Assembly (NCBI GenBank): GCA_964440955.1
Contig: CAYTTP010000002.1
Coordinates: 18,372-82,371 of the forward strand
Direction of reading: 5' to 3'
Length of the DNA stretch: 64,000 nt
Origin: an uncultured Candidatus Saccharibacteria bacterium
GTDB lineage: Bacteria; Patescibacteriota; Minisyncoccia; Phycocordibacterales; WO2-35-19
Shown: piece after piece, positions 5,956 through 51,205 of the stretch
Numbering within the stretch: position 1 is the stretch's first letter
How the letters are laid out: each line of letters begins with the position of its first letter
Made by a program: the position numbers and the translations under genes
The notes under the pieces: model-generated
What the model was told of the DNA's origin: nothing
What the model saw: only the letters and a program-made list of their open reading frames with translations
Database searches by the model: none

Positions 5956-6768
5956 ATGACAACTAAAAACCAAAAACCAAAAAAGAGTTTGGGACAAAAT
6001 TTTTTGAGAGATCCAAAAATCTTAAAAAAAATAGTAGCAATAGCAAATCTAAATAAAGAAGATGTGGTGCTTGAAGTAGGGCCAGGAGAGGGGCTAATGA
6101 CTCAGATGCTTTTGGATAGAGTGGGCAAGGTGATCGCGGTCGAAAAAGACAGCGATATGGTGTCGTTGTTGAGAGAAAAATTTAAAAATGAAATAATTTC
6201 TGGCCGGCTTGAGGTTGTTGAGGCCGACATCCTTAAATTTAAAATTGAAAATTTAAAATTGAAAATTATTGGAAACATTCCTTACTACATCACTGGCGCT
6301 ATCTTGCGCCATACATTTGAAACCGAGAAATTACCAACCTCGATCACCTTCGTCGTTCAAAAAGAGGTAGCGGAGAGAGTGGTAGCAAAAGACGGCAAAG
6401 AAAGCGTTTTGAGTATTTCGGTCAAAGCTTACGGCACACCGCATTTTGGCGGAGTGATCAAGGCTGGAAGCTTTTTCCCCGCACCAAAAATTGATTCTGC
6501 TATTTTACACATCTCCGACATTTCCAGGAAAAATTTTGAACAATGTTCAGAGGAAAACTTTTTCAAAATTTTGAAATTTGGATTTGCACATAAGAGAAAA
6601 ATTCTTTTAAAAAACCTTTCCGAAAGCTTCAAAATAAAAAGTGACGACTTGAGAAAAATATTTGCCGAATTAAAAATAGACGAAAAAGCGAGGGCAGAGG
6701 AAATTTCGGTCGAATCATGGAAAAAACTTGCCTCTAAAATTTTTTTAAATGGTATAATGATTGAGTGA
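5956..6768 (+). CDS. rsmA: 16S rRNA (adenine1518/1519-N6)-dimethyltransferase
   Basis: KSLGQNFL...EVGPGEGLMT SAM-binding motif, IGNIPYYIT. Confidence 0.85.
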   Translation: MTTKNQKPKKSLGQNFLRDPKILKKIVAIANLNKEDVVLEVGPGEGLMTQMLLDRVGKVIAVEKDSDMVSLLREKFKNEIISGRLEVVEADILKFKIENLKLKIIGNIPYYITGAILRHTFETEKLPTSITFVVQKEVAERVVAKDGKESVLSISVKAYGTPHFGGVIKAGSFFPAPKIDSAILHISDISRKNFEQCSEENFFKILKFGFAHKRKILLKNLSESFKIKSDDLRKIFAELKIDEKARAEEISVESWKKLASKIFLNGIMIE

Positions 6769-9788: not shown

Positions 9789-12044
9789 ATGAATAAAAAA
9801 TTATCAACATTATTTTTTGTCGCGATCCTGGCACTGACTTTTGTGCCTAATTTTGCTTTTGCTATAACCGAAGCCGAATGTAAAGCCAAAGGCTCAAACT
9901 ATTTCTTCACGCCAGAACTTAGAATTAGCGAGTCGGAAGTAGTGCCAGCCAACTGTACAGAGAGGACTCAAGAAGTAAGAGATAGGGGGAACCAGGTAAT
10001 GAGTGAAATGCAATCAAACGGCAGCAATCTTTTGGGTGTAATGTTTGAGCCATTGTTCAAAGGCATAGGGCAACTACTCATGACTCTTTCATCACTCGTC
10101 CTCCTTACAGTAGGGAAGCTTTTTGATTTGAGTATTACCTACACGATCATTGATATGGCAAAAAACCTAGGGCCAGACGGTATCGGCAAGGCTATCGAAG
10201 GAGCTTGGGCAACCCTAAGAGATTTGGCCAATATATTTTTTATCTTCATACTTATATATGCCGCCTTTAAGGCAATGTTTGACCTAAATCCAACTAGCAT
10301 AGGTGGCACAGTCAAAAATATAATCATAGTCGCCCTGCTTATAAACTTCAGTCTCTTTTTGTCAAAAGTGGTTATTGATGCTTCCAATGTAGTGGCAATT
10401 GGGTTTTATAAATCAATCAGTGTTCAAGAAACATATAATTTAAATTCGGGAACCATTGACGATGATGGAAATATCCTCCCCCGACCAACTGAAGTGACAG
10501 GTATAACCGGTGGTTATATGAACCTGCTTGGGATGAATGGTTGGTTTTCATCAAAAATCCTTGATACCAATGTCAGAGCCTCTACCGCAATGGCGCTTGG
10601 TGTCATGAGTTCGATATTCATGATTGTGACAGCAGTTGTTTTTGGCATCACCGCTTTTATGTTGATCGCTCGCTACATCATTCTTATATTTTTGCTCGTA
10701 CTCTCTCCGCTTGCTGCTATTTCATATATGATCCCCGGACAAAGCTCGTATTTTGATAAGTGGTGGAAAATGCTTCTAAACCAAGCCCTCTTTGCTCCAG
10801 TTTTCTTTGCTATGACCTGGGTCGTATTTAAAGTGGCCGGACATCCAAAATTTTTGGGCTCACTATCAGACAAAATATCAGGAAAAGTTTTTGTTGAAAC
10901 AATAACAAACGGTGCCGATACTGGGGTCGCTGCCATTGTTTTAAACTTTGTTTTGATCACCGGCTTCTCAGTCGCTGCGCTTATAGTATCAAAGAGTATT
11001 GCCTCAAAGACCGAAGGTTTCAACGCCATCACTGCCGGCGCGGCTGGAGCAGTTTTTGGAGGCAGTGCTCTTGCAATGAGAAATACCGTCGGCAGAGCTT
11101 CGTCACTTGTTAGTGACAAATATAGGGATAGGTTGGAAAAATCCGCCATCGGCAGAAGTACACTTTGGCTTGCCAATAAAGGTAAGGGAGCAAGCTTCGA
11201 TACTCGTGGTATTGACCTAGGTAAAGTACCTGGAGTTGGTGGGTATATCAAAAAAGAAGCTGACATCCTAGGCAAGGCAGGTGGTGCTGGTGGCTTTGCT
11301 AAAGCAGTCAAAACAAAAGCAGAAGCTAAGGAAAAATACGCTAAGGAGGTTTATGGTCAAAGTGAAAATGAAAAAGATGAGATTAAGAAAATCAAAAAAG
11401 ATAAAAATTTGACAGACAAGATAAATCTAGACCGCGAGATTGCAGAAACTAAAACAGCAACCGAAGCAAAAGAAAAGGAAGAGAAGAGAAAGAAATATGC
11501 TGATACAATACTTGGAGAATACAATACTAGATTGGCAGAACTAAATAAAGAGAGAGTAGTTAAACAGAGAGAAGTGAGTGCAGAGAAAGATGAAGACAGA
11601 AAGAAAGTATTAACCACAGAGTTAAGTAATATCTTGGCTAGTATCAACCTTGAAAAAGAGGGGAGAAAAGAAAAGGAGAAGGATATGGAAAATAATGATG
11701 CAACATACAAAGACTTGAAAGAAAAGGCTGATGAAGCTAAAGAGGCCGCCAAAAAAGCAAAGGAACAGAGAAATAAAAAGGAATACGATGATAGTGAATA
11801 TGGCGAGAGATTGAAGGATATAAAGGATAGAGCCAAGAAGCGCCAAGGAATGTATGCAGAAAGATTGAGAAAAATGCCATTTGTTGGTTGGACACAAGGT
11901 AGTGAAGCGGCGGCAAGAAAAGTTGAAGCTCTCACAGAAGAGAAGTCGAAAAGTCAAAAAGCGGCTGACCTTTTAACTGAATTTGCAAAAGATGCCACAC
12001 CTACTCCACCCCCACCGACACCTCCAACCACCCCAACAACATAA
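9789..12044 (+). CDS. TrbL/VirB6-like polytopic membrane protein with a long Lys/Glu-rich coiled-coil tail and a PT-rich C-terminus
   Basis: Signal peptide, then about 6-7 TM helices over some 350 aa, then about 270 aa of KEKE-type low complexity ending PTPPPPTPPTTPTT. It sits next to the VirB4-like gene. Confidence 0.5.
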   Translation: MNKKLSTLFFVAILALTFVPNFAFAITEAECKAKGSNYFFTPELRISESEVVPANCTERTQEVRDRGNQVMSEMQSNGSNLLGVMFEPLFKGIGQLLMTLSSLVLLTVGKLFDLSITYTIIDMAKNLGPDGIGKAIEGAWATLRDLANIFFIFILIYAAFKAMFDLNPTSIGGTVKNIIIVALLINFSLFLSKVVIDASNVVAIGFYKSISVQETYNLNSGTIDDDGNILPRPTEVTGITGGYMNLLGMNGWFSSKILDTNVRASTAMALGVMSSIFMIVTAVVFGITAFMLIARYIILIFLLVLSPLAAISYMIPGQSSYFDKWWKMLLNQALFAPVFFAMTWVVFKVAGHPKFLGSLSDKISGKVFVETITNGADTGVAAIVLNFVLITGFSVAALIVSKSIASKTEGFNAITAGAAGAVFGGSALAMRNTVGRASSLVSDKYRDRLEKSAIGRSTLWLANKGKGASFDTRGIDLGKVPGVGGYIKKEADILGKAGGAGGFAKAVKTKAEAKEKYAKEVYGQSENEKDEIKKIKKDKNLTDKINLDREIAETKTATEAKEKEEKRKKYADTILGEYNTRLAELNKERVVKQREVSAEKDEDRKKVLTTELSNILASINLEKEGRKEKEKDMENNDATYKDLKEKADEAKEAAKKAKEQRNKKEYDDSEYGERLKDIKDRAKKRQGMYAERLRKMPFVGWTQGSEAAARKVEALTEEKSKSQKAADLLTEFAKDATPTPPPPTPPTTPTT

Positions 12045-12047
12045 AAA

Positions 12048-12611
12048 ATGGAAACAAAAGAAATTATAAAAGAAAGACTTGATATATTGGGAGACGAACT
12101 AAGAGAATTCATCTTAAATGAAGGTTGGAGAAGTGATGTTAAAAAAATATGTGAGAGGTATGCTCTTGACGAAGAGCAATCCACTGTGTTTGAGAATGAA
12201 GTATTTTTTTCCTTGCTCTGTATAGAAAAAACAAGCGATATTGAAAAGAATCTAAAAGACTATGGTGGCTTTGAGGAACAGTTGGCGGGGTGGGTTTCAG
12301 AAGAAGCGCAAAAATATATATTCAATAATGTTCAAGAGTATATAAGTGAATTTTGGCAAAGTATGAATGAAATAGCCCAGGAGCAAGAACCTGCAAAAAA
12401 AGAAAGGCAAATAAATACGGGAAATGATTTTGAGCAGTTGATCATAAACCAAGCGCGAGCAATGCAGCCTGCCCGAATCGCCTCGAGCGAAGCCGTAGCG
12501 GGCGGGCCTGCCCGAACAGGCGAAGCGCCACAAAATTTACCTACACAGGATAAACCAAGAGTGATACATAATTATATCGGGCAAGATCCGTATAGGGAGG
12601 CAGTCGAATGA
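12048..12611 (+). CDS. Hypothetical acidic cytoplasmic protein
   Basis: No TM segments; the 3' end contains a local GC-rich stretch (12460-12540) carrying a CCTGCCCGAA direct repeat. Confidence 0.35.
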   Translation: METKEIIKERLDILGDELREFILNEGWRSDVKKICERYALDEEQSTVFENEVFFSLLCIEKTSDIEKNLKDYGGFEEQLAGWVSEEAQKYIFNNVQEYISEFWQSMNEIAQEQEPAKKERQINTGNDFEQLIINQARAMQPARIASSEAVAGGPARTGEAPQNLPTQDKPRVIHNYIGQDPYREAVE

Positions 12612-12637
12612 ATCATGAAGTATGAATTATGAATCAA
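12606..12637. repeat. AT-rich GAATTATGAAT-type repeat, left arm flanking the four-helix-bundle gene
   Basis: GAATGAATCATGAAGTATGAATTATGAATCAAG; it contains the stop codon of the upstream gene and the start codon of the 4HB gene. Confidence 0.6.
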
Positions 12638-13014
12638 GTAGTCAAAAAATAAAATCTTTTACAGATCTCAATAGTTGGAAAGAGGGACATAGGTTAGTGG
12701 TGATGATATATAAAATAACAAAAGGTTTTCCAAAGGAAGAGCTTTTTGGGCTAACAAATCAAATAAGAAGAGCTGCTATTTCTATAACATCAAATATTGC
12801 AGAGGGATTCAGTAGAAGTACTTTTAAGGATAAGTCACATTTCTATTCGATAGCATTAGGCTCGCTAACTGAAACCCAAAACCAACTTATTATTGCCAGA
12901 GATGTCGGGTATTTAGATACTAAAAAATTTCATGAAATAGGATTACAAACAGTTGTAGTTAGTAAACTCTGTAATGGCTTGCTAAAATCTAATAGAACTA
13001 AGCATAATTCATGA
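12622..13014 (+). CDS. Four-helix-bundle protein (23S rRNA intervening-sequence protein family)
   Basis: 130-aa sequence with the characteristic EGF.R...EK..FY.IA.GSL.E..TQL.IA pattern; flanked on both sides by AT-rich inverted repeats. Confidence 0.55.
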   Translation: MNYESSSQKIKSFTDLNSWKEGHRLVVMIYKITKGFPKEELFGLTNQIRRAAISITSNIAEGFSRSTFKDKSHFYSIALGSLTETQNQLIIARDVGYLDTKKFHEIGLQTVVVSKLCNGLLKSNRTKHNS

Positions 13015-13036
13015 TTCTTAATTCATAATTCATTTC
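13003..13036. repeat. AT-rich repeat, right arm, inverted relative to the 12606 arm
   Basis: CATAATTCATGATTCTTAATTCATAATTCATTTC; it contains the 4HB stop codon. Confidence 0.6.
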
Positions 13037-13041
13037 TTTTC

Positions 13042-13455
13042 ATGAGATTCCAAGTCCCACAGTTTATAGACGTCGAAGACAAAATATTTGGGCCACTAAC
13101 CCTTAAGCAGTTTATATATTTGGCTGGCGGAGCAAGCGTACTTCTTGTCACCACTACTATGTTTGGACTTTTCTTTGGCTTACTCCTCGCTTCCCCAGTC
13201 GTCCTCCTTGCTATCGCTCTTGCATTTTATAAAATAAACAACCGACCATTCATCCACGCTCTTGAAGCCGCCTTCATTTACCTCACTAAAGACAAACTCT
13301 ATATTTGGAAAAAAACTGAGGAGCAACGAGTCGAAACAAACAACGAACAAAAATATAAAGGATTGTCAGTACCAAACCTATCAAACAGCAAATTGAAAGA
13401 TATGAACTGGCAACTCGACACAAAGAGGGGAGAAGAATCGAAGACTGGTATATAA
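13042..13455 (+). CDS. PrgI/VirB3-like small membrane protein
   Basis: 137 aa with a conserved N-terminal stretch (FQVPQFIDVEDKIFGPLTLKQFIYL) followed by two adjacent TM helices; this is the PrgI-family architecture. Confidence 0.5.
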   Translation: MRFQVPQFIDVEDKIFGPLTLKQFIYLAGGASVLLVTTTMFGLFFGLLLASPVVLLAIALAFYKINNRPFIHALEAAFIYLTKDKLYIWKKTEEQRVETNNEQKYKGLSVPNLSNSKLKDMNWQLDTKRGEESKTGI

Positions 13456-13465
13456 TAAATAGTAA

Positions 13466-14089
13466 ATGGCTAACAACGCTACTCAAGAATTTGTCCCGAT
13501 AGACGATGTGCGCGACGGCGTCGTTATTTTGAAAGACGGTAGTATTCGCTACGTACTTATGGCTTCGAGCATAAACTTTTCCCTAAAGTCAGCTGACGAA
13601 AGGCAGGCCATCCTCCTTCAGTTTCAAGATTTTTTGAACTCTCTGGATTTTTCAGTTCAAATATTGGTCGAGTCTCGAAAACTTGATATACGGCCCTACA
13701 TAGCTGTTTTGGAAGAGCGATACAAAGCCCAAACCAACGATCTTATGAAAGTTCAGATCGAACAATACATCGAATTCGTCCGAAGCTTCACCGAGTCGTC
13801 AAATATAATGACCAAAAATTTCTTTATCATCGTACCTTACGACTCAGCAATAATATCGACCCAGTCCGGATTTCTCGGTAGTTTGGTCAGCAAAAAGGAC
13901 GCCAAAAAACAACAAGACGATAGCTTTGAAGAAAATCGAAACCAACTCGAACAGCGAGTAAGTGTGGTCGAGCAAGGTTTGTCGAGATGTGGAGTAAGAG
14001 TTGCAAGGCTTGGAACCGATGAAGTGGTAGAATTATTTTACAAAGTATTTAACCCTGGCGAATCAGAAAAACCAATCAAAATTAGTTAG
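13466..14089 (+). CDS. Hypothetical protein resembling the extreme N-terminus of VirB4/TrbE ATPases
   Basis: FVPIDDVRDGVVILKDGSIRYVLMASSINF...ERQAILLQFQDFLNSL resembles the VirB4 N-terminal region. A 100-nt spacer separates it from the ATPase ORF. Confidence 0.35.
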   Translation: MANNATQEFVPIDDVRDGVVILKDGSIRYVLMASSINFSLKSADERQAILLQFQDFLNSLDFSVQILVESRKLDIRPYIAVLEERYKAQTNDLMKVQIEQYIEFVRSFTESSNIMTKNFFIIVPYDSAIISTQSGFLGSLVSKKDAKKQQDDSFEENRNQLEQRVSVVEQGLSRCGVRVARLGTDEVVELFYKVFNPGESEKPIKIS

Positions 14090-14101
14090 AAACTAATTTT
14101 A

Positions 14102-14183
14102 GAATCAAGAATTATGAATCACGAATTATGGTACGAAAAGAAAAATGGGTTGTATGATTCATACTTCATAATTCATAATTCAA
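14102..14183. repeat. AT-rich inverted-repeat pair with nothing between the arms (25-nt spacer), lying between the two VirB4-related ORFs
   Basis: GAATCAAGAATTATGAATCACGAATTATGG ... TGATTCATACTTCATAATTCATAATTCAA. Confidence 0.6.
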
Positions 14184-14192
14184 TTTAAAAAT

Positions 14193-15989
14193 ATGTTTGA
14201 TTTTTTCAAGAAAAAAGAAAACAAAAAATTGACCAATGTCTCGGTTTTACCGACCACTATCACCGAGAGTGCCGAGCTCGAATTGCGCGATATTTTGGCG
14301 CCCTCAGCCCTAAAGGTTAACGCCAAAGAACTAAACTTGGGTGAAAAGTTAGTGCGTAGCTTCTTCGTCATTTCATACCCACGCTTTCTTTCTGAGGATT
14401 GGTTTTCACCGATTATCAATATGGATAAAATGTTCGATGTCTCTATTTTTATTCACCCGCTTGAAACAGCCAAAGTTCTTCGCACTTTCCAAAAAAAAGT
14501 AGCCGAAGTTCAAAGCCAAATCCGTACTCGGGAAGAAAAGGGGTTGGTACGCGACCCAGTACTCGACACTGCCTACCAAGACCTTGAGAACTTGCGTGAC
14601 GACCTCCAACAGGCGCAGGAAAAAATGTTTGAGGTTGGCCTTTATGTCTCTGTTTATGCAACCACAAGCGAAGAACTCGATAAGGTAGAGTCCGAAATAA
14701 AGTCAATGATGGAGTCGAAACTCGTCTACATCAAACCGGCCCTGTTTCAACAAGAACAGGGTTTTCGCAGCATCTTACCGATCGCCAAAGACGACCTATC
14801 GGTTCACTCTAAAATAAATTCGTCACCACTTTCAAGCGTTTTCCCATTCATTTCCTTTGACCTTACCTCCGACAAAGGTATCCTCTACGGAATAAACCGA
14901 CACAATTCGTCTTTAGTTCTTTTTGATCGCTTCTCGCTAGAAAATTACAACTCAGTATGTCTCGCTAAATCAGGGTCAGGAAAGTCTTTTGCCACCAAAC
15001 TTGAAATATTGCGTACTCTCATGTTTGACGCAGAAGTAATAGTTATTGATCCAGAAAATGAATATGAATATATGGCGGAAGCGGTCGGTGGCCGATATTT
15101 CAACATCTCCCTCAACTCTGACCACCATATAAACCCATTTGAATTGCCAATACCAGGTGAAGACGAGTCAAGTGCAGCAGTTTTGAGAAGCCAAATAATA
15201 AACTTGGTTGGGTTGTTTCGTATCATGATGGGTGGGCTCACTCGCGAAGAAGACGCTATCATTGATCAAGCAATAACCGAAACCTATGCCTTGAAAGACA
15301 TCACGGCCGACTCCGATTTTAAAAATATTGAACCCCCTCTTTTATCTGACTTTGAGCTCGTGCTTGGTGGTATGGAAGGAGGAGCATCACTTGCTCAACG
15401 TATTTCAAAATATACCAGAGGTACTTGGGCAAACTTTATAAACAGGCCATCAAACATCGATATCAACAAACAATTCATTGTTTTTTCAATCCGAGACATG
15501 GAGGATGAGTTGAAGCCAGTCGCTATGTATATCGTAACCCACTATATATGGAACGCGATCCGTCGCGAACTCAAAAAACGCCTGCTTGTGATTGATGAGG
15601 CTTGGTGGATGATGAAGTCCGAGGATACCGCTTCGTTTTTGCTTTCACTCGCAAAACGCGGCCGAAAATACTATCTTGGACTCGCCACCATCACCCAAGA
15701 CGTTGACGACTTTTTGAAATCGCCTTATGGTACACCAATCATCAGCAACTCCTCGATCCAAATACTTCTAAAGCAGTCGCCAACTACCATCGACCGGCTT
15801 CAAGAAGTCTTCAACCTCACCGATGAGGAAAAATATTTGTTGCTCGAGTCGGGAGTAGGGGAGGGAATATTTTTTGCCGGACTCAAACATGTGGCGATCA
15901 AAATAATCGCTTCTTACACCGAAAGCCAAATTATCACTTCCGATCCTTCCCAAATACTTGCCATCAAGCAAATGAAAAATAAGTTATAA
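14193..15989 (+). CDS. virB4: VirB4/TraC/TrbE-family type IV secretion ATPase
   Basis: Walker A CLAKSGSGKSFATK; Walker B LLVIDEAWWMM; LGLATITQD motif. Confidence 0.8.
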   Translation: MFDFFKKKENKKLTNVSVLPTTITESAELELRDILAPSALKVNAKELNLGEKLVRSFFVISYPRFLSEDWFSPIINMDKMFDVSIFIHPLETAKVLRTFQKKVAEVQSQIRTREEKGLVRDPVLDTAYQDLENLRDDLQQAQEKMFEVGLYVSVYATTSEELDKVESEIKSMMESKLVYIKPALFQQEQGFRSILPIAKDDLSVHSKINSSPLSSVFPFISFDLTSDKGILYGINRHNSSLVLFDRFSLENYNSVCLAKSGSGKSFATKLEILRTLMFDAEVIVIDPENEYEYMAEAVGGRYFNISLNSDHHINPFELPIPGEDESSAAVLRSQIINLVGLFRIMMGGLTREEDAIIDQAITETYALKDITADSDFKNIEPPLLSDFELVLGGMEGGASLAQRISKYTRGTWANFINRPSNIDINKQFIVFSIRDMEDELKPVAMYIVTHYIWNAIRRELKKRLLVIDEAWWMMKSEDTASFLLSLAKRGRKYYLGLATITQDVDDFLKSPYGTPIISNSSIQILLKQSPTTIDRLQEVFNLTDEEKYLLLESGVGEGIFFAGLKHVAIKIIASYTESQIITSDPSQILAIKQMKNKL

Positions 15990-17932: not shown

Positions 17933-19177
17933 ATGAAAAAGATTCTTATCATAGGTATGGTGGTGATAATCGGCGTAGCGGTATTTTTGATATATTCGCC
18001 ACTTGCGGACAATGGTGGGGGAGGAGAGAGTAGGGTCGGTTTTTCGATAAGAGACTTTTTGCCATTTGGCAAAAGCGATGACGGAGTTCAACTTACCGAC
18101 CAAAACCAAGACCAAAACACTCCCACAAGTACCAGCACTTCAACAAATATTGGGGTTATACCAAGAATAAGAAAGGTTTCCCAAGAGCCTATAGCTGGAG
18201 CAGTCATCTTTGCCCAAGGGACGACCAGTGTTGTACGTTTTGTAGAAAAAGGTACAGGCAATGTGTATGAAGCTCGTTCTGACTCAAATACTATTGAGCG
18301 GTTAACCAACACCACTATCCCTAAAATAGTACGAGCTTTTTGGTTGCCAAATGGTACGGGATTTTTGGCTCAAACTCTCGCTCCTGAGAGCGAAATAATA
18401 GAAACTCGATTTGTCAAAATAGCCCGAGCTCTCAATATAGGAGCACAAGAATCACTAACCCCTTATAACGCGACTATTTCCAATTTGCCGACCGGTATAG
18501 AAGAACTAAGTATAAGACCCGACAGTGCCAAGATATTTTATTACACCATTTCAAATTTGAACTCCGAGTGGCATATTTCAAACCCTGACGGTACAGCCGA
18601 TACTGTTGTTTATAAACATCCACTTACCGAATGGTTGCCAACCTGGCTTGATAACTCAAATATAAGCCTCCAAAGCAAACCAAGTGGTACGGAAATAGGT
18701 TATGTTTATTCATTTAATACTTCAAATGGAATTTTGAAGAAAAACGGCACTTCGGGAGCAGGCCTCCTTTCTACCCCAAAAAATATAGAAATGGAATTGG
18801 CTTCAACCGGTGGCACATCACCAAGGCTTTTTGCCATAGACAATAAAAATTTAACCTCAAAAAGTTTGGATGTGGCGACCTTGGCGGACAAATGTACTTG
18901 GTCTTCTTCCAAAACCCTAGCCGTATACTGTGCTGTCCCAAAAGAGGTTTTTAGAGCCGTCTACCCTGACGATTGGTACAAAGGATTATTAAACTTCAAT
19001 GATTCAATTTACTACATCACAATTGACCCATTATTTGTTGTTAACACTATTAACCTTTCCCAAACAACAAAAGAAATGATCGATGTGGTCGATATAAAAA
19101 TTAGTCCAACTGACGATCACCTTATTTTCAAAAACAAAGCAGATGGCTATTTATGGCTTTTGAGAATTGCCGAGTAA
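17933..19177 (+). CDS. Hypothetical membrane-anchored extracytoplasmic protein; last gene of the T4SS-like cluster
   Basis: Single N-terminal TM helix, Thr/Ser-rich linker, large beta-rich ectodomain. Confidence 0.35.
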   Translation: MKKILIIGMVVIIGVAVFLIYSPLADNGGGGESRVGFSIRDFLPFGKSDDGVQLTDQNQDQNTPTSTSTSTNIGVIPRIRKVSQEPIAGAVIFAQGTTSVVRFVEKGTGNVYEARSDSNTIERLTNTTIPKIVRAFWLPNGTGFLAQTLAPESEIIETRFVKIARALNIGAQESLTPYNATISNLPTGIEELSIRPDSAKIFYYTISNLNSEWHISNPDGTADTVVYKHPLTEWLPTWLDNSNISLQSKPSGTEIGYVYSFNTSNGILKKNGTSGAGLLSTPKNIEMELASTGGTSPRLFAIDNKNLTSKSLDVATLADKCTWSSSKTLAVYCAVPKEVFRAVYPDDWYKGLLNFNDSIYYITIDPLFVVNTINLSQTTKEMIDVVDIKISPTDDHLIFKNKADGYLWLLRIAE

Positions 19178-19870
19178 TTGCTTTTTGATATACATATCCT
19201 GGACCATGCCGGCAATATTGCTCACTATCCAATAAAGTGCGACTACGGCCGATATTTTCCACGAAACAAAAAATATAACTATTGGCATGGTGTATTTCAT
19301 TTGAGTACCAAGCACTTGGGAAAAATCTTTTGAGTCAACTGGTGTTTTTTGTCCTGAAGATGATTGCTGAACATGCATTTGAAAATATGTACTTATAGCG
19401 GCTATAATTGCAAAAATAACGCTTTTTTGAGAAACATCAATTAAACCAAATAAATACATTGAAACCGATGTTGGTATTTTTATAAAAGAATACAAAATAG
19501 CCGGGTCAATGGTAGGCAAACCAGAGCGATAAAAAATATGATAAAGAGAGTAGATGACTGGTATTTGAATAAAAAGAGTAACTAAACCTGAAAAAGGGTT
19601 TATGTTGTTTATTTTATAAAATTCCATTACTTTGACAGCCTGTTCTTGAGTATCGGGATATTTCTTTTTTATTTCGGCCAATTCTCCTTCTTTTTGTTTC
19701 ATTATAAGCTGAGTAAGGGAAGTTTTTTTTGAAAGAGGGTAGAGAATTATTTTTACCAAAACAGTCAGAATAATGACTGCGATACCAACATCAACAAAAG
19801 GAATATTCAAAAGAAGAATAAGAGCGTTATAAAGGGGGATATACACAATTGTCTTTAAAAAAGAAATCAT
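19151..19870 (-). CDS. yidC: YidC/Oxa1-family membrane protein insertase (short form)
   Basis: Polytopic protein with a conserved YidC core; rnpA-yidC synteny. Confidence 0.8.
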   Translation of the reverse strand: MISFLKTIVYIPLYNALILLLNIPFVDVGIAVIILTVLVKIILYPLSKKTSLTQLIMKQKEGELAEIKKKYPDTQEQAVKVMEFYKINNINPFSGLVTLFIQIPVIYSLYHIFYRSGLPTIDPAILYSFIKIPTSVSMYLFGLIDVSQKSVIFAIIAAISTYFQMHVQQSSSGQKTPVDSKDFSQVLGTQMKYTMPIVIFFVSWKISAVVALYWIVSNIAGMVQDMYIKKQLLGNSQKP

Positions 19871-20199
19871 TTTAAGTTTTGTATTTTTGTAATAATAGCA
19901 TGAACTTCCTTTTTAACCTCATCAATACGCTCAGGTATCTTCCTAAAGGAAAAAACAACCATAACTGGATTATTTAAAGTTTCAATTATTCCCGAAACAG
20001 CGCGGTAGCCAGCCCGGCGCATTTTGTTTCTTAATACTGCCTTTTTTGATATTTTTTTTGATATCGAAAAGCAAATTCGAGAGTGTTTTTCGTTTGATTT
20101 AGAAAAACGAGCAAAAAAAATAGGGGTATTTAAAAATTGATTGGAGTCATAAACAGTCTTGAAGGACTTCTTGGGTATCCTATATTTTTTGCTTATCAT
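19867..20199 (-). CDS. rnpA: Ribonuclease P protein component
   Basis: Basic 110-aa protein placed between rpmH and yidC; FSISKKISKKAVLRNKMRR motif. Confidence 0.75.
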   Translation of the reverse strand: MISKKYRIPKKSFKTVYDSNQFLNTPIFFARFSKSNEKHSRICFSISKKISKKAVLRNKMRRAGYRAVSGIIETLNNPVMVVFSFRKIPERIDEVKKEVHAIITKIQNLK

Positions 20200-20206
20200 A
20201 AAAGCT

Positions 20207-20341
20207 TTATACTGAAAGCTTTTTTCGGCCTTTTTGGCGACGACGTTTCAAGACTTTTTTGCCATTTGCTGATTTGCTTCTCTTTAGAAAACCGTGAGTT
20301 TTTGCTCGCTTTTTCTTTTTTGGTTGATAGGTTGTTGACAT
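20207..20341 (-). CDS. rpmH: 50S ribosomal protein L34
   Basis: Hand translation of the minus strand gives [44 protein letters not shown] (44 aa). It is absent from the ORF track because it falls below the 60-aa cut-off. Confidence 0.8.
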
Positions 20342-20451
20342 GTTTTTATTTTACTTGCCGGTTAAATTTTCAACTAGTTATAAACACATTATAAACACAT
20401 TTAGTTACAAATACAAGTTTCCTAAAAAAGTTTTGAATATATAATACCTCC
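20342..20451. promoter_or_regulatory. oriC-flanking region upstream of dnaA
   Basis: Tandem TTATAAACACA x2 (20378-20399) and a divergent rpmH/dnaA promoter region. Confidence 0.4.
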
Positions 20452-21795
20452 ATGGACACCAAGGAACTATGGAACAACGTTCTTCTTGAAATAGAGACAT
20501 CTGTTTCGAAAGCGAATTTTGCGACATGGTTCAAAGAAACAAAGATCTCTGGTTTTGAAGATGGTACCGTTTATCTTTCGGTCCCAAACACTTTCGTTCA
20601 GGAATGGCTTACAAAAAAATTCCACCCCCTTATTTTAAAGCTACTTAGGCAATCGTCTGAGTCAATACACGCCTTAGAGTATGTAATCAAAGAGGAGAGT
20701 AAACAAAAAAACCAATATATTCCAACAAAAAATACCACTATAGCAAAAGAATTGCCGCTTGCTGAACATTATATAAACAAAGAGGATAACTTAAACCCTC
20801 GTTATACTTTTGAGTCTTTTGTGGTTGGCCCGTTCAACGAACTTGCTTATGCAGCCGCTCAAGCTGTTATAAAAAGCCCAGGCATTGCTTATAATCCATT
20901 TTTCATTTACGGCAGTACCGGACACGGCAAAACACACCTCATTCAAGCCATAGGGAACGCTGTTAAAGCCAAAGATCCGTCAAAAAAAATATTTTATTTC
21001 ACTACTGAAAAATTCACTAGCGACTACACAAATTCAGTTCAAGCCAATAAAGTCGAACAATTTAAGGAGAAATATCGAAAATACGACATGATAATTATGG
21101 ACGATGTTCAATTTCTATCTGGTAAAGAAAAAACCCAAGAGGAATTGTTCCATCTTTTCAATATAATGAAAGATAATAACAAACACGTTGTCTTTTCTTG
21201 CGATAAACACCCAAATTTCGTGACCGGACTCGAGGACAGGCTTAAATCTCGGTTTTCAGCCGGAATGGTTATTGATATTCCAGCCCCAGACCATGAATCA
21301 AGAGTGGCAATAATAAAATCAAAATGTTCTTCTATAAACCTATTTTTATCAGATGATGTTATTGACTATTTGGCTGATTCAATAAAAGGTAATATTCGAG
21401 ACTTAGAGGGGGTAATAAACCTAATAGTCTGCCAAACCGAAACAAAAAATAGAACCTTAAATCTAAACGAAGTAAAAGAATTGGTAAAAAATAGTATTAA
21501 ACAAAAAAAGTTACTTTCCTATAAAGAGGTAATAAAAATAATTTCTGACTTCTATAAAATAGAAGAAGAAACAATATACGAAAAAACTAGAAAAAAAGAG
21601 GTTATAAAACCTAGACAAATAATAATGTATATTCTAAGAGAGGATTTTAGTATTTCTTATCCATCAATAGGGGAGAAGCTTGGTGGTCGCGATCACACCA
21701 CAGTGATACATTCATGTGAAAAAATAAAAAAAGACATGAAAGTTGATATGTTACTCCTAAAAGAGATTCAGGAGATACGTTCAATGATAAGTTGA
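20452..21795 (+). CDS. dnaA: Chromosomal replication initiator DnaA
   Basis: AAA+ motifs GSTGHGKTHL and IIMDDVQFL; C-terminal DNA-binding helix-turn-helix. Confidence 0.95.
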   Translation: MDTKELWNNVLLEIETSVSKANFATWFKETKISGFEDGTVYLSVPNTFVQEWLTKKFHPLILKLLRQSSESIHALEYVIKEESKQKNQYIPTKNTTIAKELPLAEHYINKEDNLNPRYTFESFVVGPFNELAYAAAQAVIKSPGIAYNPFFIYGSTGHGKTHLIQAIGNAVKAKDPSKKIFYFTTEKFTSDYTNSVQANKVEQFKEKYRKYDMIIMDDVQFLSGKEKTQEELFHLFNIMKDNNKHVVFSCDKHPNFVTGLEDRLKSRFSAGMVIDIPAPDHESRVAIIKSKCSSINLFLSDDVIDYLADSIKGNIRDLEGVINLIVCQTETKNRTLNLNEVKELVKNSIKQKKLLSYKEVIKIISDFYKIEEETIYEKTRKKEVIKPRQIIMYILREDFSISYPSIGEKLGGRDHTTVIHSCEKIKKDMKVDMLLLKEIQEIRSMIS

Positions 21796-21997
21796 TAAGT
21801 TGTTGATTGATTGAGGAATAGTAATGGAAAAGTAAATTAAAAAGTTGATAATTTTTAAAAAATAAAAAACTAAAAAATTATTATCAACAAATATCCACAT
21901 GATATTTTTAAAAAAATTCCAAAAAACGTTCAGATATAAGCAGATAAAGTAGAATTCCCCAAATCCACAGATTATATGAACTAAAAAAATAAATTAA
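21796..21997. promoter_or_regulatory. Candidate oriC: DnaA-box cluster plus an AT-rich unwinding element between dnaA and dnaN
   Basis: TTATCAACA (21881), TATCCACA (21892), AAATCCACA (21961), TTGATAAG/TTGATAAT reverse boxes (21792, 21844), A/T-only run at 21851-21880. Confidence 0.6.
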
Positions 21998-23098
21998 ATG
22001 AAAATAAAAACAAACAAACAAAAAATAGAATCCGGGGTACAAAAAGCTTCTCGAGTAGCTAATAAACATCTTACTCTTCCAGTATTATCGTGTGTTTATT
22101 TGGAAGCGTTAGCCTCTGGTAAATTGGTTATAAAATCAACCAATTTAGATGTCGGTATTGAAATAGAGCTTGAAGTTAAAACAGTTGAACAGGGAGTGGC
22201 TGCTGTACCAGCTCAAATATTTTTAAATGTTCTTTCTTCGATAAAAGAAGATGAAATAACAATCGAAACAAAGGATAACAATATACTTATTTCATCAAAT
22301 AAAAACTCAGCAACTATTAAATGTCTTCCTTATGAGGATTTTCCAACAATACCAATATTAGAAAGTTCTAATGTTTTACAAATAAATAGCAGGGATTTAT
22401 TAGCTGGTTTTAAGTCGGTTTGGTATAGTGCCTCTGTTTCAGCTATTAAACCAGAATTAAGTAGTGTCTTTTTATATAAAGATGGTGAAAATTTAGTTTT
22501 TGCTTCTACAGACTCATTTAGGTTGGCAGAAAAAAAGGTTCACAATTCTTCAAATGTTGAAATTCCACAACTTTTAATACCATCAAAAAACGTTTCCGAA
22601 ATAATAAAGCTTTTTGAAGATCTTGGCGATGATATAAATGTTGTTTTTGAAAAAAATCAAATCGCTTTTATCGCTAAAGATATATATTTAGTCTCTAGGT
22701 TGGTTGAAGGAAATTTCCCTGACTATAAACAAATAATACCTAAAAATTTTACTTCAAGTGTTACTGTTTTGAAAAATGACTTTATAAACTCAATAAAAAC
22801 TTCAAATATATTTTCTGACACTCTTCATCAGGTTAAATTATCGGTCGTACCAAACGAAAAAGCTTTGTTTGTTGAATCAAAAAATAATGATGTTGGTGAG
22901 TATAAGGAATCAATCAATGCTTCTATAACTGGAGACGCTTTAGAATTAAATTTTAACAACAAATATATTATTGATTGCATGCAATCAATAGTATCGGATA
23001 GTATCGTTTTAAATTTTGCCGGAATGGGTAAACCTTTATTGATTGAAGGTGTCTCAAAAAATGGGTTTAGCTATATAGTTATGCCAATGAATAGATAA
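21998..23098 (+). CDS. dnaN: DNA polymerase III beta sliding clamp
   Basis: 366 aa with three-domain clamp conservation; directly downstream of dnaA. Confidence 0.9.
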   Translation: MKIKTNKQKIESGVQKASRVANKHLTLPVLSCVYLEALASGKLVIKSTNLDVGIEIELEVKTVEQGVAAVPAQIFLNVLSSIKEDEITIETKDNNILISSNKNSATIKCLPYEDFPTIPILESSNVLQINSRDLLAGFKSVWYSASVSAIKPELSSVFLYKDGENLVFASTDSFRLAEKKVHNSSNVEIPQLLIPSKNVSEIIKLFEDLGDDINVVFEKNQIAFIAKDIYLVSRLVEGNFPDYKQIIPKNFTSSVTVLKNDFINSIKTSNIFSDTLHQVKLSVVPNEKALFVESKNNDVGEYKESINASITGDALELNFNNKYIIDCMQSIVSDSIVLNFAGMGKPLLIEGVSKNGFSYIVMPMNR

Positions 23099-26994: not shown

Positions 26995-27513
26995 CTACAA
27001 ATTTCTTGTGGATAAAATGGTGGCTGATGATGTAAGAGCTATCGCGATCGCGTCGTATTCATCGTCTATTTTTTTGTCATTTTTGGTTAGGCGCAAAATC
27101 TTTCTGACCATGTCTATCACCTGGTTTTTATCGCTTTTGCCATAGCCAGTGACCGCTAGTTTTACTTGATTTGGGTTGTACTCCCTCACTTCGACTCCAT
27201 ACTCAGCTCCTTTTTGTAGTATCACGCCACGCACTTCGGCGACCATGAGTGCGGTCTTTACATTTTTGCTGAATAAAAGATTCTCGACTGCAAGTATTGC
27301 TGGATTGTATTTTTTAAAGATTCGATCGAGCTTTTTGGCTACTAGATTTAGGCGTTCTGGGTGGGGGATTTTGGCTTCTGTTTCAAAACACTCGGAATGA
27401 ATTAAGTTGTCACCAATATTTGTTTTTTCAATCACCGCAATCCCTAGTCGGCCATAACCGGGGTCGATACCCAATATAAATGAATTATGAATTATGAATT
27501 TTGAATTATGCAT
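26995..27513 (-). CDS. ruvC: Holliday junction resolvase RuvC
   Basis: ILGIDPGYGRLGIAVIE catalytic motif. The first 11 codons are supplied by an AT-rich repeat, so the true start may lie a few codons downstream. Confidence 0.85.
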   Translation of the reverse strand: MHNSKFIIHNSFILGIDPGYGRLGIAVIEKTNIGDNLIHSECFETEAKIPHPERLNLVAKKLDRIFKKYNPAILAVENLLFSKNVKTALMVAEVRGVILQKGAEYGVEVREYNPNQVKLAVTGYGKSDKNQVIDMVRKILRLTKNDKKIDDEYDAIAIALTSSATILSTRNL

Positions 27514-27541
27514 AATTCTTGATTCTCAATTCATTATTCAG
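27478..27541. repeat. AT-rich inverted-repeat pair between yebC and ruvC
   Basis: TGAATTATGAATTATGAATTTTGAATTATG / CATAATTCTTGATTCTCAATTCATTATTCA; it supplies the first codons of ruvC. Confidence 0.6.
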
Positions 27542-39035: not shown

Positions 39036-39037
39036 GG

Positions 39038-39116
39038 GATTGAATTATGAAGTATGAAGTATGAATTAAGAATTATGCATCGGAAACCATAATTCATCAT
39101 TCTTTATTCATGATTC
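39038..39116. repeat. AT-rich inverted-repeat pair between murE and mutM
   Basis: GATTGAATTATGAAGTATGAAGTATGAATTAAGAATTATGCAT / CCATAATTCATCATTCTTTATTCATGATTC; it supplies the last codons of murE. Confidence 0.6.
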
Positions 39117-50700: not shown

Positions 50701-51193
50701 AGACATGGAAGAAGTGCGACGCATAGTGTCGCTCGCTCTTGAAAAGCGTATGGCTGCAAATATAAAAGTAAGGCAACCGTTGACTAAATTAAAAATAAAA
50801 AATTCAAGATTGAATAATTCGGACCCAGCTTTTTTGGATTTGATCAAGGATGAAATAAATATCAAAGAAGTTGTTTTTGATGAAAGTATTGCCGAAGATG
50901 TAGAGCTTGACCAAACCATCACTCCGGAGTTGAAAAAGGAGGGGGAGGTGCGGGAGATTATCAGGATGATACAAGACTTGCGTAAAGAAAATGAACTAAC
51001 ACCTGACCAAAAAATAACTCTAAGGGTCGAAGCAGGAAAAGAAAAAATAGAGCTGTTTAGAGAGTTTGAAAGCACAATTTCCAAACCAACCAACATTTCG
51101 CATTTTGAGTTTATTGATAGAGAAGGTGGGGCAGATGTCGCAAGGGAAGTTGATTTGGATAGACTGGTTTTGTCCATAATTCATACTTCTTAA
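47738..51193 (+). CDS. ileS: Isoleucyl-tRNA synthetase carrying an in-frame inserted histidine-phosphatase (PGAM-family) domain
   Basis: HIGH-like motif (PPTANAKPALHH), KMSKS, and WCTRCGT zinc motif. Between GTPLPVW (about aa 484) and VWFDSG (about aa 714) lies a roughly 150-aa module with RHG (FVMRHGEARNN), SPFLRTRET and IVSHG motifs. Confidence 0.9.
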   Translation: MKEEEKNIAAKEEEVLKFWKENKIFEKSLTKSSPKGNFVFYEGPPTANAKPALHHLEARAFKDVIPRYKTMRGFHVPRKGGWDTHGLPVELQIEKKLGLTSKKDIEQYGVEAFNRACKESVFEYIGEWEKFTDRIAYWVDKKNAYYTFNSSFMETEWNIIKKVYEDDLLYKDYRVVPWCTRCGTALSSHELAQGYEDVKDLSVYVKFKVKQGQKIKDSVVEDNTYILAWTTTPWTLPGNVGLAVGEEIEYLKLKITNQGGGIGNSSEILIIAKERVSVITAEYSVLDEIKGKDLIGLEYEPLYPYLKDKFESKDPESFERAYKVYGADFVTTTDGTGIVHTAVMYGQEDFELGTKVGLPKFHLVSDDGKFVSDTGFLEGRFVKEKDENGKPTLAVDIIDDLKKRNLFLNQENIKHTYPHCWRCKTPLIYYARDSWYIRMSKLRDELQKENEKINWVPSHIRAGRFGEWLREVKDWAISRERYWGTPLPVWLSKNGEMKVIGSVEELKKYTKKSGNQYFVMRHGEARNNALNIPDREGDPENHLTEKGEKEVLETCDDLKTKKIDLIITSPFLRTRETVAIIKRELGLKEENIVEDTRIFEIQPNESYLEVRKRMGEFIFDIESRYQNKNILIVSHGLPIWSLLEVVNMRKVDDGDTPYDLKTGEVKGFSFSLFPKNEKYELDLHKPYIDEIELFDEGGEKLTRTKEVMDVWFDSGAMPFAQDGLTLQDKVLYPADYISEAIDQTRGWFYTLHAIGVLMGRGHAYKNVVCLGHILDAEGKKMSKSVGNIIDPVVAINTYGADALRMWMYTVNQPGDSKNFDPKTVDELIKKIFNPIENVISFYEMYADSSIQPHDRSSDLLDKWIIAVFKKMSAQGTEYLDNFKIFEAARLVRDFVNDFSTWYIRRSRERFKSEDLTDKNNALSTTAFVLRELSKYMAPFMPFFAESIYLKFRANEEPESVHLTGWPFEDDGILKNIFDSFKHEKNIIEDMEEVRRIVSLALEKRMAANIKVRQPLTKLKIKNSRLNNSDPAFLDLIKDEINIKEVVFDESIAEDVELDQTITPELKKEGEVREIIRMIQDLRKENELTPDQKITLRVEAGKEKIELFREFESTISKPTNISHFEFIDREGGADVAREVDLDRLVLSIIHTS

Positions 51194-51205
51194 TTCATAA
51201 TTCAG
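51174..51205. repeat. AT-rich repeat, single arm, at the ileS stop
   Basis: CCATAATTCATACTTCTTAATTCATAATTCAG; it encodes the ileS C-terminus IIHTS followed by the stop. Confidence 0.5.

Follow-up and report, generated by a model that had tools for sequence, protein, structure and literature searches.

An intergenic stem-loop cassette with tandem heptamer arms that carries a four-helix-bundle gene

Why should the same AT-rich inverted repeat recur at six places in one stretch of bacterial DNA, once on either side of a small four-helix-bundle (4HB) gene and elsewhere with nothing between its arms? The stretch analysed, referred to here as the window, covers 64 kb of contig CAYTTP010000002.1. 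A sequence-only reading had proposed that the repeats form a small cassette with vacated, attachment-like sites, comparable to the 4HB-bearing intervening sequences (IVS) of 23S rRNA, or alternatively a lineage-specific family of bidirectional AT-rich terminators. Here we find that the repeats are the paired arms, each of about four tandem 7-nt units, of a stem-loop insertion built like the ORF-bearing 23S IVS but sitting between ordinary genes, and that the same build surrounds this gene family in several bacterial phyla. The observation itself was confirmed, whereas the interpretation was only partly supported, in that the cassette idea holds up in substance but the closed pairs have not been shown to be vacated sites and the terminator alternative is not supported.

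PF05635 proteins have had no known role since they were found in rRNA intervening sequences about thirty years ago, and bacterial heptamer repeats, although over-represented, are unexplained. The data presented here tie the two together, since they place the IVS architecture outside rRNA and inside operons, with gene-bearing and gene-less forms alternating at the same slots in related genomes. In our literature searches, which covered open-access papers and bioRxiv so that an earlier report cannot be excluded, no paper linked heptamer arms with PF05635 outside the Coxiella IVS.

Results

Anatomy of the repeats

All six loci proposed from the sequence alone are present, and they contain nine arms. 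The 11-mer GAATTATGAAT, allowing up to 1 mismatch, gave 23 matches in the window, against 2.83 +/- 1.79 (largest 9) in shuffled sequence. The 11-mer proved to be 1.5 units of a tandem heptamer, which the sequence-only reading had missed: Tandem Repeats Finder reported period 7 with about 4 copies at every arm, and a search for three units of (GAATTAT) with up to 4 mismatches gave 21 hits, all at these loci, against 0-1 in shuffles. The unit is GAATTAT on the 5' side and its complement on the 3' side. The elements are listed in Table 1.

Table 1. Repeat arms, cargo gene and cargo-less elements in the window
Coordinates	Strand	Feature	Details
12606..12638	+	Left arm (A) of the cargo-bearing element	GAATGAATCATGAAGTATGAATTATGAATCAAG; about 4.5 heptamers (period 7, 3.9-4.4 copies); contains the TGA stop of the upstream 187-aa gene (12609-12611) and the ATG of the 4HB gene (12622)
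12622..13014	+	Cargo gene, 130-aa four-helix-bundle protein	PF05635, E=1.6e-36; TIGR02436, E=2e-34; closest solved structure XCC0516 (PDB 2gsc, E=5e-22); dN/dS 0.05-0.12
13002..13035	-	Right arm (A')	CATAATTCATGATTCTTAATTCATAATTCA; contains the last codons and stop of the 4HB gene; ends 7 nt before the PrgI ATG (13042)
14101..14187	.	Closed (cargo-less) element between the TraC-like gene and the VirB4 gene	Arms 14101-14129 and 14151-14187; loop about 21 nt; homologous copies in L001 and L080
27473..27539	.	Closed element between yebC and ruvC (both on the - strand)	Arms 27473-27516 and 27505-27539; central palindrome GAATTATGCATAATTC; supplies the yebC stop and the ruvC ATG with a 12-residue N-terminal extension
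39037..39116	.	Closed element between murE and fpg (both on the - strand)	Arms 39037-39081 and 39088-39116; supplies the last murE codons and the stop
51173..51205	-	Lone A' arm between ileS and a recO-like gene	CATAATTCATACTTCTTAATTCATAATTCA; 28/30 identical to the right arm of the cassette; supplies the ileS end; most likely a remnant after loss of the partner arm

The proposal that the arms supply terminal codons of neighbouring genes was also correct. MurE ends ..IMNKE*, IleS ends ..SIIHTS*, the 4HB protein runs from MNYESS... to ...KHNS*, and RuvC starts MHNSKFIIHNSF before its conserved ILGIDPG, which explains the odd N- and C-terminal extensions that annotation gives to such genes. The arms flanking the 4HB gene pair in the minimum-free-energy fold, in a stem of about 28 bp with a duplex dG of -29 kcal/mol, and the closed pairs fold better than shuffles (z -2 to -4.9).

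The terminator reading of the arms is not supported

Occurrence at convergent sites regardless of content had been named in advance as the outcome that would favor plain terminators. In the window, arms were found at 6 of 46 co-directional junctions, 0 of 10 convergent and 0 of 9 divergent ones, and all six lie inside operons. No terminator-like site fell on the arms in 12000-15000, the only stretch scanned; the arms at 27.5, 39.0 and 51.2 kb were not scanned, although no T run follows them or the other stems. The stems are AT-rich rather than short and G+C-rich, the arms overlap stop and start codons, and one pair is split by a 390-nt gene. The only support for intrinsic terminators is that the arms form hairpins in intergenic DNA, and we regard this explanation as very improbable. 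A search of Rfam returned no family at the hairpins and no rRNA in the window.

Fixed slots in related genomes

Comparison of syntenic loci, which had been suggested beforehand as a check on the cassette idea, was carried out on 80 Paceibacterota species found through VirB4 (loci from the comparisons carry the prefix L). The type-IV-secretion-like cluster, consisting of the 187-aa gene, PrgI, TraC and VirB4, is conserved, and 77 of the loci include its three slots. Of these, 17 carry a 4HB gene in one or two of the three slots. Most slots are shorter than 45 nt, and 25 spacers are hairpins, with the best self-match at lag 7 in 16 and at lag 9 in 5. Four of the closest relatives lacking 4HB (L014, L017, L023 and L080; VirB4 87-90% identical) have a closed hairpin where the window has the cassette, while a fifth, L015, has the same repeat arms but a fold that is not significant (z -0.6). 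Loss of an arm by deletion is documented in the third slot of L080.

The 4HB genes in this cluster are flanked by inverted heptamer arrays with lineage-specific units in nearly every case examined, and cognate arm pairs give a duplex dG of -31.4 kcal/mol against -19.4 for non-cognate pairs. Of 15 single genes enclosed by strict inverted period-7 pairs, 12 are 4HB, against 26 4HB genes among 1089 called genes (Fisher p=8e-19). Period 7 is itself special, since tandem arrays in 1.07 Mb numbered 2, 15, 110, 7, 33, 0 and 12 for periods 5 to 11, respectively.

These results bear on the possibility that the arrays are simple-sequence repeats born in place by polymerase slippage, with no mobility or function, and that the association with 4HB is a by-product of their abundance. 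Heptamer repeats are indeed over-represented in many bacteria and vary in copy number (PMC4692102, PMC4990558). However, the arrays come as complementary inverted pairs with matching units, they are enriched around 4HB genes, and an identical 30-mer with its non-consensus units in the same order recurs in different contexts and genomes, so that this explanation is already disfavored and appears very unlikely.

Gene and arms travel together

The 4HB of L011, 67% identical to that of the window, sits one slot further along. Both of its arms have changed to GAATTAC/GTAATTC, and a closed pair occupies the slot that the window uses. The exact 30-nt right arm of the window recurs in about six other gene contexts, with or without 4HB: in metagenomes it occurs behind 4HB genes upstream of PrgI, of a GrpE-like gene and of a membrane-protein gene, and also in closed hairpins between TraC and VirB4 and upstream of a YchF-like gene. 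The degenerate pattern used for this search also picked up 58 plain (ATAATTC)n arrays in unrelated contigs, and only the 15 exact 'GA' matches were used as evidence.

The 4HB protein is under strong purifying selection with synonymous sites saturated, and yet the right arm is 30/30 identical in four lineages, once in a different reading frame. Compensatory change was looked for in the clade of the window and not found, in that the right arm is invariant while the left arm drifts; only the more distant L011 shows both arms changed together. The invariant right arm beside an uncompensated left arm in the window's clade fits sequence-specific recognition better than plain pairing. In the same clade the 4HB gene has stayed in one slot across saturated synonymous divergence, and may be domesticated there.

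Such constancy raises the alternative that the hairpins are host-serving operon punctuation, that is, processing, stability or translational-coupling signals kept by the cell, with the 4HB protein as a trans-acting factor that recognises the arrays and whose own gene carries the same signals. All arms in the window use the same unit as the cassette, and the distal arm always ends ..CATAATTCA 5-10 nt before the next ATG. Against this, most related species have no element in the same slots, genomes only 10-13% apart in VirB4 carry unrelated unit families in the same slot, several families occur in one genome, and other small selfish-type cargos occur in such arms, namely PDDEXK_3 and a PemK-like gene with a 9-mer repeat arm on its left side only. 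A sense-strand RNA signature was also sought in 33 closed hairpins and not found: the sense strand folds better in 12 and the antisense in 21 (p=0.17), and G.U pairs number 103 in sense and 132 in antisense folds. We consider this alternative unlikely, although it is the strongest of the rivals.

The dispersed copies with shared arms in unrelated contexts could also suggest non-autonomous elements of the MITE or REP/BIME kind, moved by a transposase encoded elsewhere, such as a RAYT/IS200-type enzyme acting on hairpins, with the 4HB gene as a passenger. A gene-bearing copy flanked by inverted repeats, together with many gene-less inverted pairs in intergenic DNA of the same genome, is what is seen with MITEs and their parent IS, and with BIMEs and REPtrons. 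However, no transposase lies in or next to any of about 40 cassettes examined, no direct repeat or target-site duplication is visible at the borders, the enclosed 130-aa helical bundle is not a Y1 or DDE transposase, and single arms are tandem heptamers rather than palindromes. The whole genome was not searched for RAYT, and we consider this reading quite unlikely. The integron gene cassette, with an ORF followed by a single attC site next to intI, is not matched either: the arms lie on both sides of the ORF, the copies are dispersed over 40 kb, and no integrase was found among the neighbouring genes examined.

The same build in other phyla

Whether other 4HB paralogs in the genome are flanked by the same repeats had likewise been posed as a check. 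Among 15 plasmid-borne, non-CPR 4HB loci, about 11 have inverted heptamer arms; these come from Nostocales, Picosynechococcus, Geminocystis, Riemerella and Azospirillum. Three or four of the 15 are one-sided or unclear, and one locus, Pseudanabaena L096, has direct rather than inverted arrays in a region full of heptamer arrays, a point in favor of slippage. In three of the five 3.3-kb loci, nevertheless, the two arms around the gene are the only period-7 arrays. Published data extend the pattern: XCC0516 of Xanthomonas has, on its start side, a 4-unit GGGAATC array overlapping the start codon, next to bccP (supplement of PMC4692102), and 4HB genes lie inside cas operons (PMC3936711) and at several insertion sites in CPR rRNA genes (PMC11270868).

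Discussion

The closest relative of this architecture is the ORF-bearing 23S IVS of Coxiella (PMC4990558), and the link is more than an analogy. There, an S23p/4HB (PF05635) ORF lies in the loop, tandem heptamers (GACAGAT x3-4) that vary in copy number between strains lie just upstream of the ORF start, a 28-bp terminal stem is cut by RNase III, and the distribution is sporadic. The window element has the pairing terminal inverted repeats, the PF05635 ORF in the loop and the heptamers at its 5' end, with the ATG inside the array. It differs in that the IVS sits in helix 45 of an rRNA and is removed from it, whereas all copies here lie between protein-coding genes and their arms supply stop and start codons; moreover, the Coxiella ORF is decaying and probably not expressed, while the window gene is under strong purifying selection.

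The most plausible explanation, to which we assign a probability of roughly 0.62, is an IVS-type, self-closing, probably mobile cassette outside rRNA, present in the window as one cargo-bearing copy, three cargo-less copies and one copy that has lost an arm. The comparisons show that the elements are gained, lost or replaced at fixed slots among related Paceibacterota, that gene and arms travel together, and that the same build surrounds PF05635 genes in other phyla. The remainder is inference: that the insertion is self-closing, mobile and largely neutral; that in the transcript the arms pair, which brings the upstream stop and the downstream start back together and makes an RNase III substrate, so that operon expression survives; that cargo can pass between copies by recombination through the homologous arms; and that the conserved 4HB protein acts on the element's own nucleic acid. 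Mobility is inferred from distribution only, as no recombinase was found. It is not shown that the closed pairs are vacated sites, since they could equally be precursors or cargo-less relatives, nor that they act as attachment sites for a recombinase. The RNA-level role rests on the IVS precedent and not on covariation, and neither cleavage nor transcripts were examined. An RNase III motif search and tblastn with E. coli Rnc found no RNase III gene in the 64-kb window, the rest of the genome not having been seen.

A wider reading is tentative and, in our view, rather unlikely. In it, PF05635 proteins and inverted tandem-heptamer arms together form one phylum-spanning class of mobile stem-loop element, which would be the source of ORF-bearing rRNA intervening sequences, of many of the unexplained intergenic heptamer repeats and of the 4HB genes scattered inside cas and other operons; the pentameric 4HB protein would recognise the arms, about one unit per subunit, and promote maintenance or spread of the element without a conventional transposase. 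Taken together, our data turn IVS, STRR-like repeats, Xanthomonas inverted heptamer pairs and 4HB genes wedged into cas operons into one testable object, for which RNase III cleavage of the stems and binding of 4HB to heptamer arrays are predicted.

The intergenic repeats concerned include the GGGAATC arrays of Xanthomonas, with 70-75 convergent pairs per genome, and the cyanobacterial heptanucleotide repeats (STRR). Like the arms described here, these are tandem 7-nt units in intergenic DNA, often in convergent inverted pairs of about 4 units and conserved in position between related species (PMC4692102). They were described as possible G-quadruplex repeats of unknown role, with no link to PF05635, whereas the units here are AT-rich and cannot form G4. 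We also considered that period 7 serves to place stops and starts in all three frames. This holds for GAATTAT/ATAATTC, which give TGA, ATG or TAA every 7 nt, but fails for other unit families such as CAACAAC and so is not general.

The window protein is also homologous to Avd, the pentamer-forming four-helix-bundle accessory protein of diversity-generating retroelements, but its hits to bAvd (E=2e-4) and NF033474 are weak, the latter scoring 19.6 bits against a family cut-off of 80, and no reverse transcriptase, template repeat or variable repeat lies nearby, the neighbours being type-IV-secretion-like genes. A further parallel is the P6b stem-loop of the Nostoc tRNA-Leu group I intron, which carries no ORF, sits inside an intron and is known only from Nostocales, but whose stem is likewise built from one of two 7-nt repeat motifs, with gain and loss of units on both sides, and is lodged in a hairpin of a structured RNA (PMC4476775).

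Heptamer-armed elements in the window

The sequence-only reading had reported an 11-mer, GAATTATGAAT, recurring as an AT-rich inverted-repeat family at six loci, and this observation is confirmed. The 11-mer, however, is 1.5 units of a tandem heptamer. Allowing up to one mismatch, it occurs 23 times in the window against 2.8 expected, the matches step by 7 nt, and Tandem Repeats Finder calls period 7 with about 4 copies at every site. A search with three units and up to 4 mismatches hit only the six reported loci, against 0-1 hits in shuffled sequence. Nine arms are present, designated A (GAATTAT-type) and A' (ATAATTC-type), arranged as one pair flanking an ORF, three closed A..A' pairs and one lone A' arm. 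The enclosed ORF encodes a clear four-helix-bundle (4HB) protein, matching PF05635 (E=1.6e-36) and TIGR02436 (E=2e-34), with XCC0516 (PDB 2gsc, E=5e-22) as the closest solved structure. The earlier statements that the arms supply terminal codons of the murE, ileS, ruvC and 4HB genes are all correct. The genome is a Paceibacterota (CPR) genome, and its VirB4 is 87-91% identical to that of MAGs labelled Paceibacterota or Zambryskibacteria.

Positions of features in the window and in related loci
Sequence	Position	Feature
Window	6231-6270	Period-7/14 array inside ORF 5956..6768
Window	12460-12530	G+C-rich stretch in the 3' part of the 187-aa gene
Window	12606-12638	A arm
Window	12622..13014	4HB ORF
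Window	13002-13035	A' arm
Window	14101-14187	Closed A..A' pair
Window	19151-23098	ORFs next to the type-IV-secretion-like cluster
Window	27473-27539	Closed A..A' pair
Window	39037-39116	Closed A..A' pair
Window	47738-51193	ileS, 1151 aa
Window	51173-51205	Lone A' arm
L014	4080-5466	9-mer hairpin family
L015		9-mer hairpin family
L016	2476-2629	9-mer hairpin family
L017	4600-5287	9-mer hairpin family
L022	1348-1920	PemK/MazF-like toxin gene
L051	4635-5268	PDDEXK_3 gene
L096	1273-1975	4HB gene between cas6 and cas4

Genetic context of the arms

The sequence-only reading had offered bidirectional AT-rich terminators as its alternative to a cassette, and prevalence of the repeats at convergent junctions had been named in advance as the outcome that would favor them. 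With 66 genes called, the window has 46 co-directional, 10 convergent and 9 divergent junctions, and all six junctions with arms are co-directional. They lie inside operons, namely a type-IV-secretion-like cluster (up187|4HB|PrgI|TraC-like|VirB4, where up187 is the upstream 187-aa gene), ruvB-yebC-ruvC, murE-fpg and ileS-recO-like. A terminator scan of 12000-15000, the only stretch scanned, found nothing at the arms. Furthermore, the stems are AT-rich, about 28 bp long and not followed by T runs. The closed pairs do fold better than shuffles (z -2 to -4.9), and the two arms around the 4HB gene pair with each other in the fold of the whole 451-nt stretch. The terminator reading is rejected on the position of the arms, the lack of T runs and the scan of 12000-15000, whereas the cassette reading is partly supported and has been sharpened by the comparisons below.

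Slot occupancy in related genomes

The 4HB protein has thousands of homologues, of which the best 120 are 64-82% identical. In four lineages (80, 77, 75 and 71% identical) it sits in the same slot with the same kind of arms. In a fifth lineage (locus L011, 67%), however, the gene sits one slot further along, PrgI|4HB|TraC, both arms read GAATTAC/GTAATTC instead of GAATTAT/ATAATTC, and the slot used in the window holds a closed pair.

Comparison of syntenic loci for presence or absence of the gene had been proposed as a test of the cassette idea. A scan of species-representative genomes with VirB4 gave 80 further clusters, of which 77 include the slots and 17 have a 4HB gene in one or two of the three slots. 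Most slots are shorter than 45 nt, and 25 spacers of 50-220 nt are significant hairpins, with the best self-match at lag 7 in 16 and at lag 9 in 5. Four of the closest relatives that lack 4HB (loci L014, L017, L023 and L080; VirB4 87-90%) carry a closed hairpin exactly where the window has the cassette, while a fifth, L015, has the same repeat arms but a fold that is not significant (z -0.6). The units in these hairpins are unrelated to GAATTAT, being AGCTNNN, AGTAGTT or a 9-mer, TAATTAACC/TTAGAATAA. The hairpins with tandem 9-mer arms constitute a second family, which occupies one to three slots of the same cluster in close relatives (L014, L015, L016 and L017) and in L016 sits beside a heptamer-armed 4HB cassette.

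Association of the arms with 4HB genes

The cassette reading had also been made to depend on whether other 4HB paralogs in the genome are flanked by the same repeats. In nearly every case examined, a 4HB gene in these clusters is flanked by inverted tandem heptamers, even where the protein is only 27-35% identical to that of the window. The unit follows the 4HB clade: GAATTAT, GAGTTAC, ATGTATT, GAAGTAN, AGTTTTA, CAACAAC, GAAGCTN and TAGGNAT. Cognate left and right flanks give a duplex of -31.4 kcal/mol on average, against -19.4 for non-cognate pairs, and lag 7 is the best period in about 80% of flanks. In 1.07 Mb of these loci, tandem arrays number 2 for period 5, 15 for period 6, 110 for period 7, 7 for period 8, 33 for period 9, 0 for period 10 and 12 for period 11. 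Of 26 strict inverted period-7 pairs, 24 lie between co-directional genes. Of the 15 pairs that enclose a single gene, 12 enclose 4HB, while 4HB makes up 26 of 1089 called genes (Fisher p=8e-19). Additionally, two other small cargos were seen in such slots: a PDDEXK_3 (GxxExxY-type) gene between inverted ATACGAA/TTCGTAT heptamer arrays (locus L051), and a PemK/MazF-like toxin gene with a 9-mer arm on its left side only (locus L022).

The arrangement is polar, in that the G- and purine-rich arm is on the 5' side in 27 of 31 cassettes across all loci (p=3e-5). In non-CPR phyla the units upstream of the 4HB start often contain Shine-Dalgarno-like GGAG, AGGA or GAGG; the CAACAAC family is the exception.

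Movement and constraint

Synonymous sites between the window and its relatives are saturated (pS 0.53-0.86) and dN/dS is 0.05-0.12, so the protein is functional. Yet the right arm, CATAATTCATGATTCTTAATTCATAATTCA, is 30/30 identical in the window and in the related loci L001, L005 and L010, although in L010 it lies in another reading frame relative to the stop codon. The lone arm at 51173 differs from this 30-mer at two bases. Exact matches to the 30-mer in metagenomes (15 loci) occur behind 4HB genes upstream of PrgI, behind 4HB genes upstream of a GrpE-like gene and of a small membrane-protein gene, in closed hairpins in the TraC|VirB4 slot and upstream of a YchF-like GTPase, and as a lone arm. 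One further cassette (L148), with the plain-repeat variant of the arm, lies between two other genes. So the same arm, with or without the same 4HB clade, occupies about six other gene contexts. Arm loss by deletion is also documented, since L080 keeps the window-type A arm and part of the loop in slot iii but lacks A'; this most likely explains the lone arm after ileS.

The G+C-rich stretch in the 3' part of the 187-aa gene contains GCCTGCCCGAA twice, 39 nt apart. At this position relatives (L001, L005, L009, L010 and L011) have an extra A-type heptamer array inside the coding sequence, translated as MNYESRxMN, and in those relatives this array pairs with the right arm of the cassette as well as the proximal arm does.

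Occurrence beyond CPR

A tblastn search against plasmids found 40 records with 4HB genes, of which fifteen were examined. Clear inverted heptamer arms with lineage-specific units flank the gene in Nostoc punctiforme, Aulosira, Trichormus, Nostoc edaphicum, Calothrix NIES-22, Anabaena 90 (between cas6 and cas4), Picosynechococcus (between cmr2 and cmr3), Geminocystis, Riemerella and Azospirillum, and the arms are partial in Stanieria. Three loci are one-sided or unclear. In Pseudanabaena galeata (plasmid pPg_01, locus L096) the 4HB gene is flanked by long direct arrays, (GCTAAAA)~14 and (CCAAAAG)~10, rather than inverted ones, and the locus holds eight period-7 arrays in 3.4 kb. In three of the five 3.3-kb loci, by contrast, the two arms are the only period-7 arrays present.

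Relation to published repeats and intervening sequences

The 23S intervening sequence (IVS) of Coxiella has an S23p (4HB) ORF, three to four tandem GACAGAT heptamers just before its start, and a 28-bp terminal stem, in the middle of which RNase III cuts (PMC4990558). In Xanthomonas, a 4-unit GGGAATC array overlaps the start codon of XCC0516, the crystallised 4HB protein, next to bccP, and there are 70-75 convergent pairs of such arrays per genome, of unknown role (PMC4692102 and its supplement). The P6b stem of the Nostoc trnL intron is built of 7-nt repeats (PMC4476775). Also, 4HB genes are known inside cas operons (PMC3936711) and at several rRNA insertion sites in CPR (PMC11270868). We found no paper, among open-access articles and bioRxiv, that joins these observations. 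The cross-phylum link between heptamer arms and PF05635 genes thus appears not to have been described, and it makes the function of this protein family testable.

A self-closing insertion as the most likely mode of action

The element is an IVS-type, heptamer-armed stem-loop cassette, differing from the known ORF-bearing IVS in that it lies outside rRNA. The analysis itself demonstrates the architecture, its identity with the ORF-bearing IVS, the alternation of states at fixed slots, the co-travel of gene and arms, and purifying selection on the protein and on one arm. How the element works is, in contrast, our inference. In this view it is a self-closing insertion: in the transcript the arms would pair, so that the upstream stop codon (in or next to the A arm) and the downstream start (5-10 nt after the A' arm) come back together at the base of the stem, the same logic that lets an IVS sit in an rRNA helix. 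By the IVS precedent the stem would be an RNase III substrate, although RNase III was not found in the 64 kb examined. Because the 4HB start codon lies inside the A arm, 11 nt after the upstream stop, its translation would depend on ribosomes opening the stem. Copies that share arms could exchange cargo by recombination through them, but no enzyme for mobility was identified. Moreover, closed hairpins show no extra stability or extra G.U pairs on the sense strand. Within the window's clade one arm is frozen while the other drifts; sequence-specific recognition or a DNA-level role is therefore as likely as simple RNA pairing.

Additional features of the window and related contigs

IMG/VR contigs classed as viral (L184-L191) carry several closed GAATTAT-type hairpins each, roughly one per 2-3 kb, with no homologue of the type-IV-secretion genes; our analysis did not distinguish CPR phages from mis-classed CPR fragments here. 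In the window, the type-IV-secretion-like cluster lies next to ORFs whose sizes and order match yidC, rnpA, dnaA and dnaN in the annotated relatives (L005, L009 and L011); although these window ORFs were not themselves scanned, the window probably spans the replication origin region. The period-7/14 array at 6231-6270 (AAATTTAAAATTGA x2.4) is unrelated in sequence to the GAATTAT family and has no inverted partner. Finally, the ileS gene carries a histidine-phosphatase domain (PF00300, residues 518-601) inserted within the class I synthetase core.
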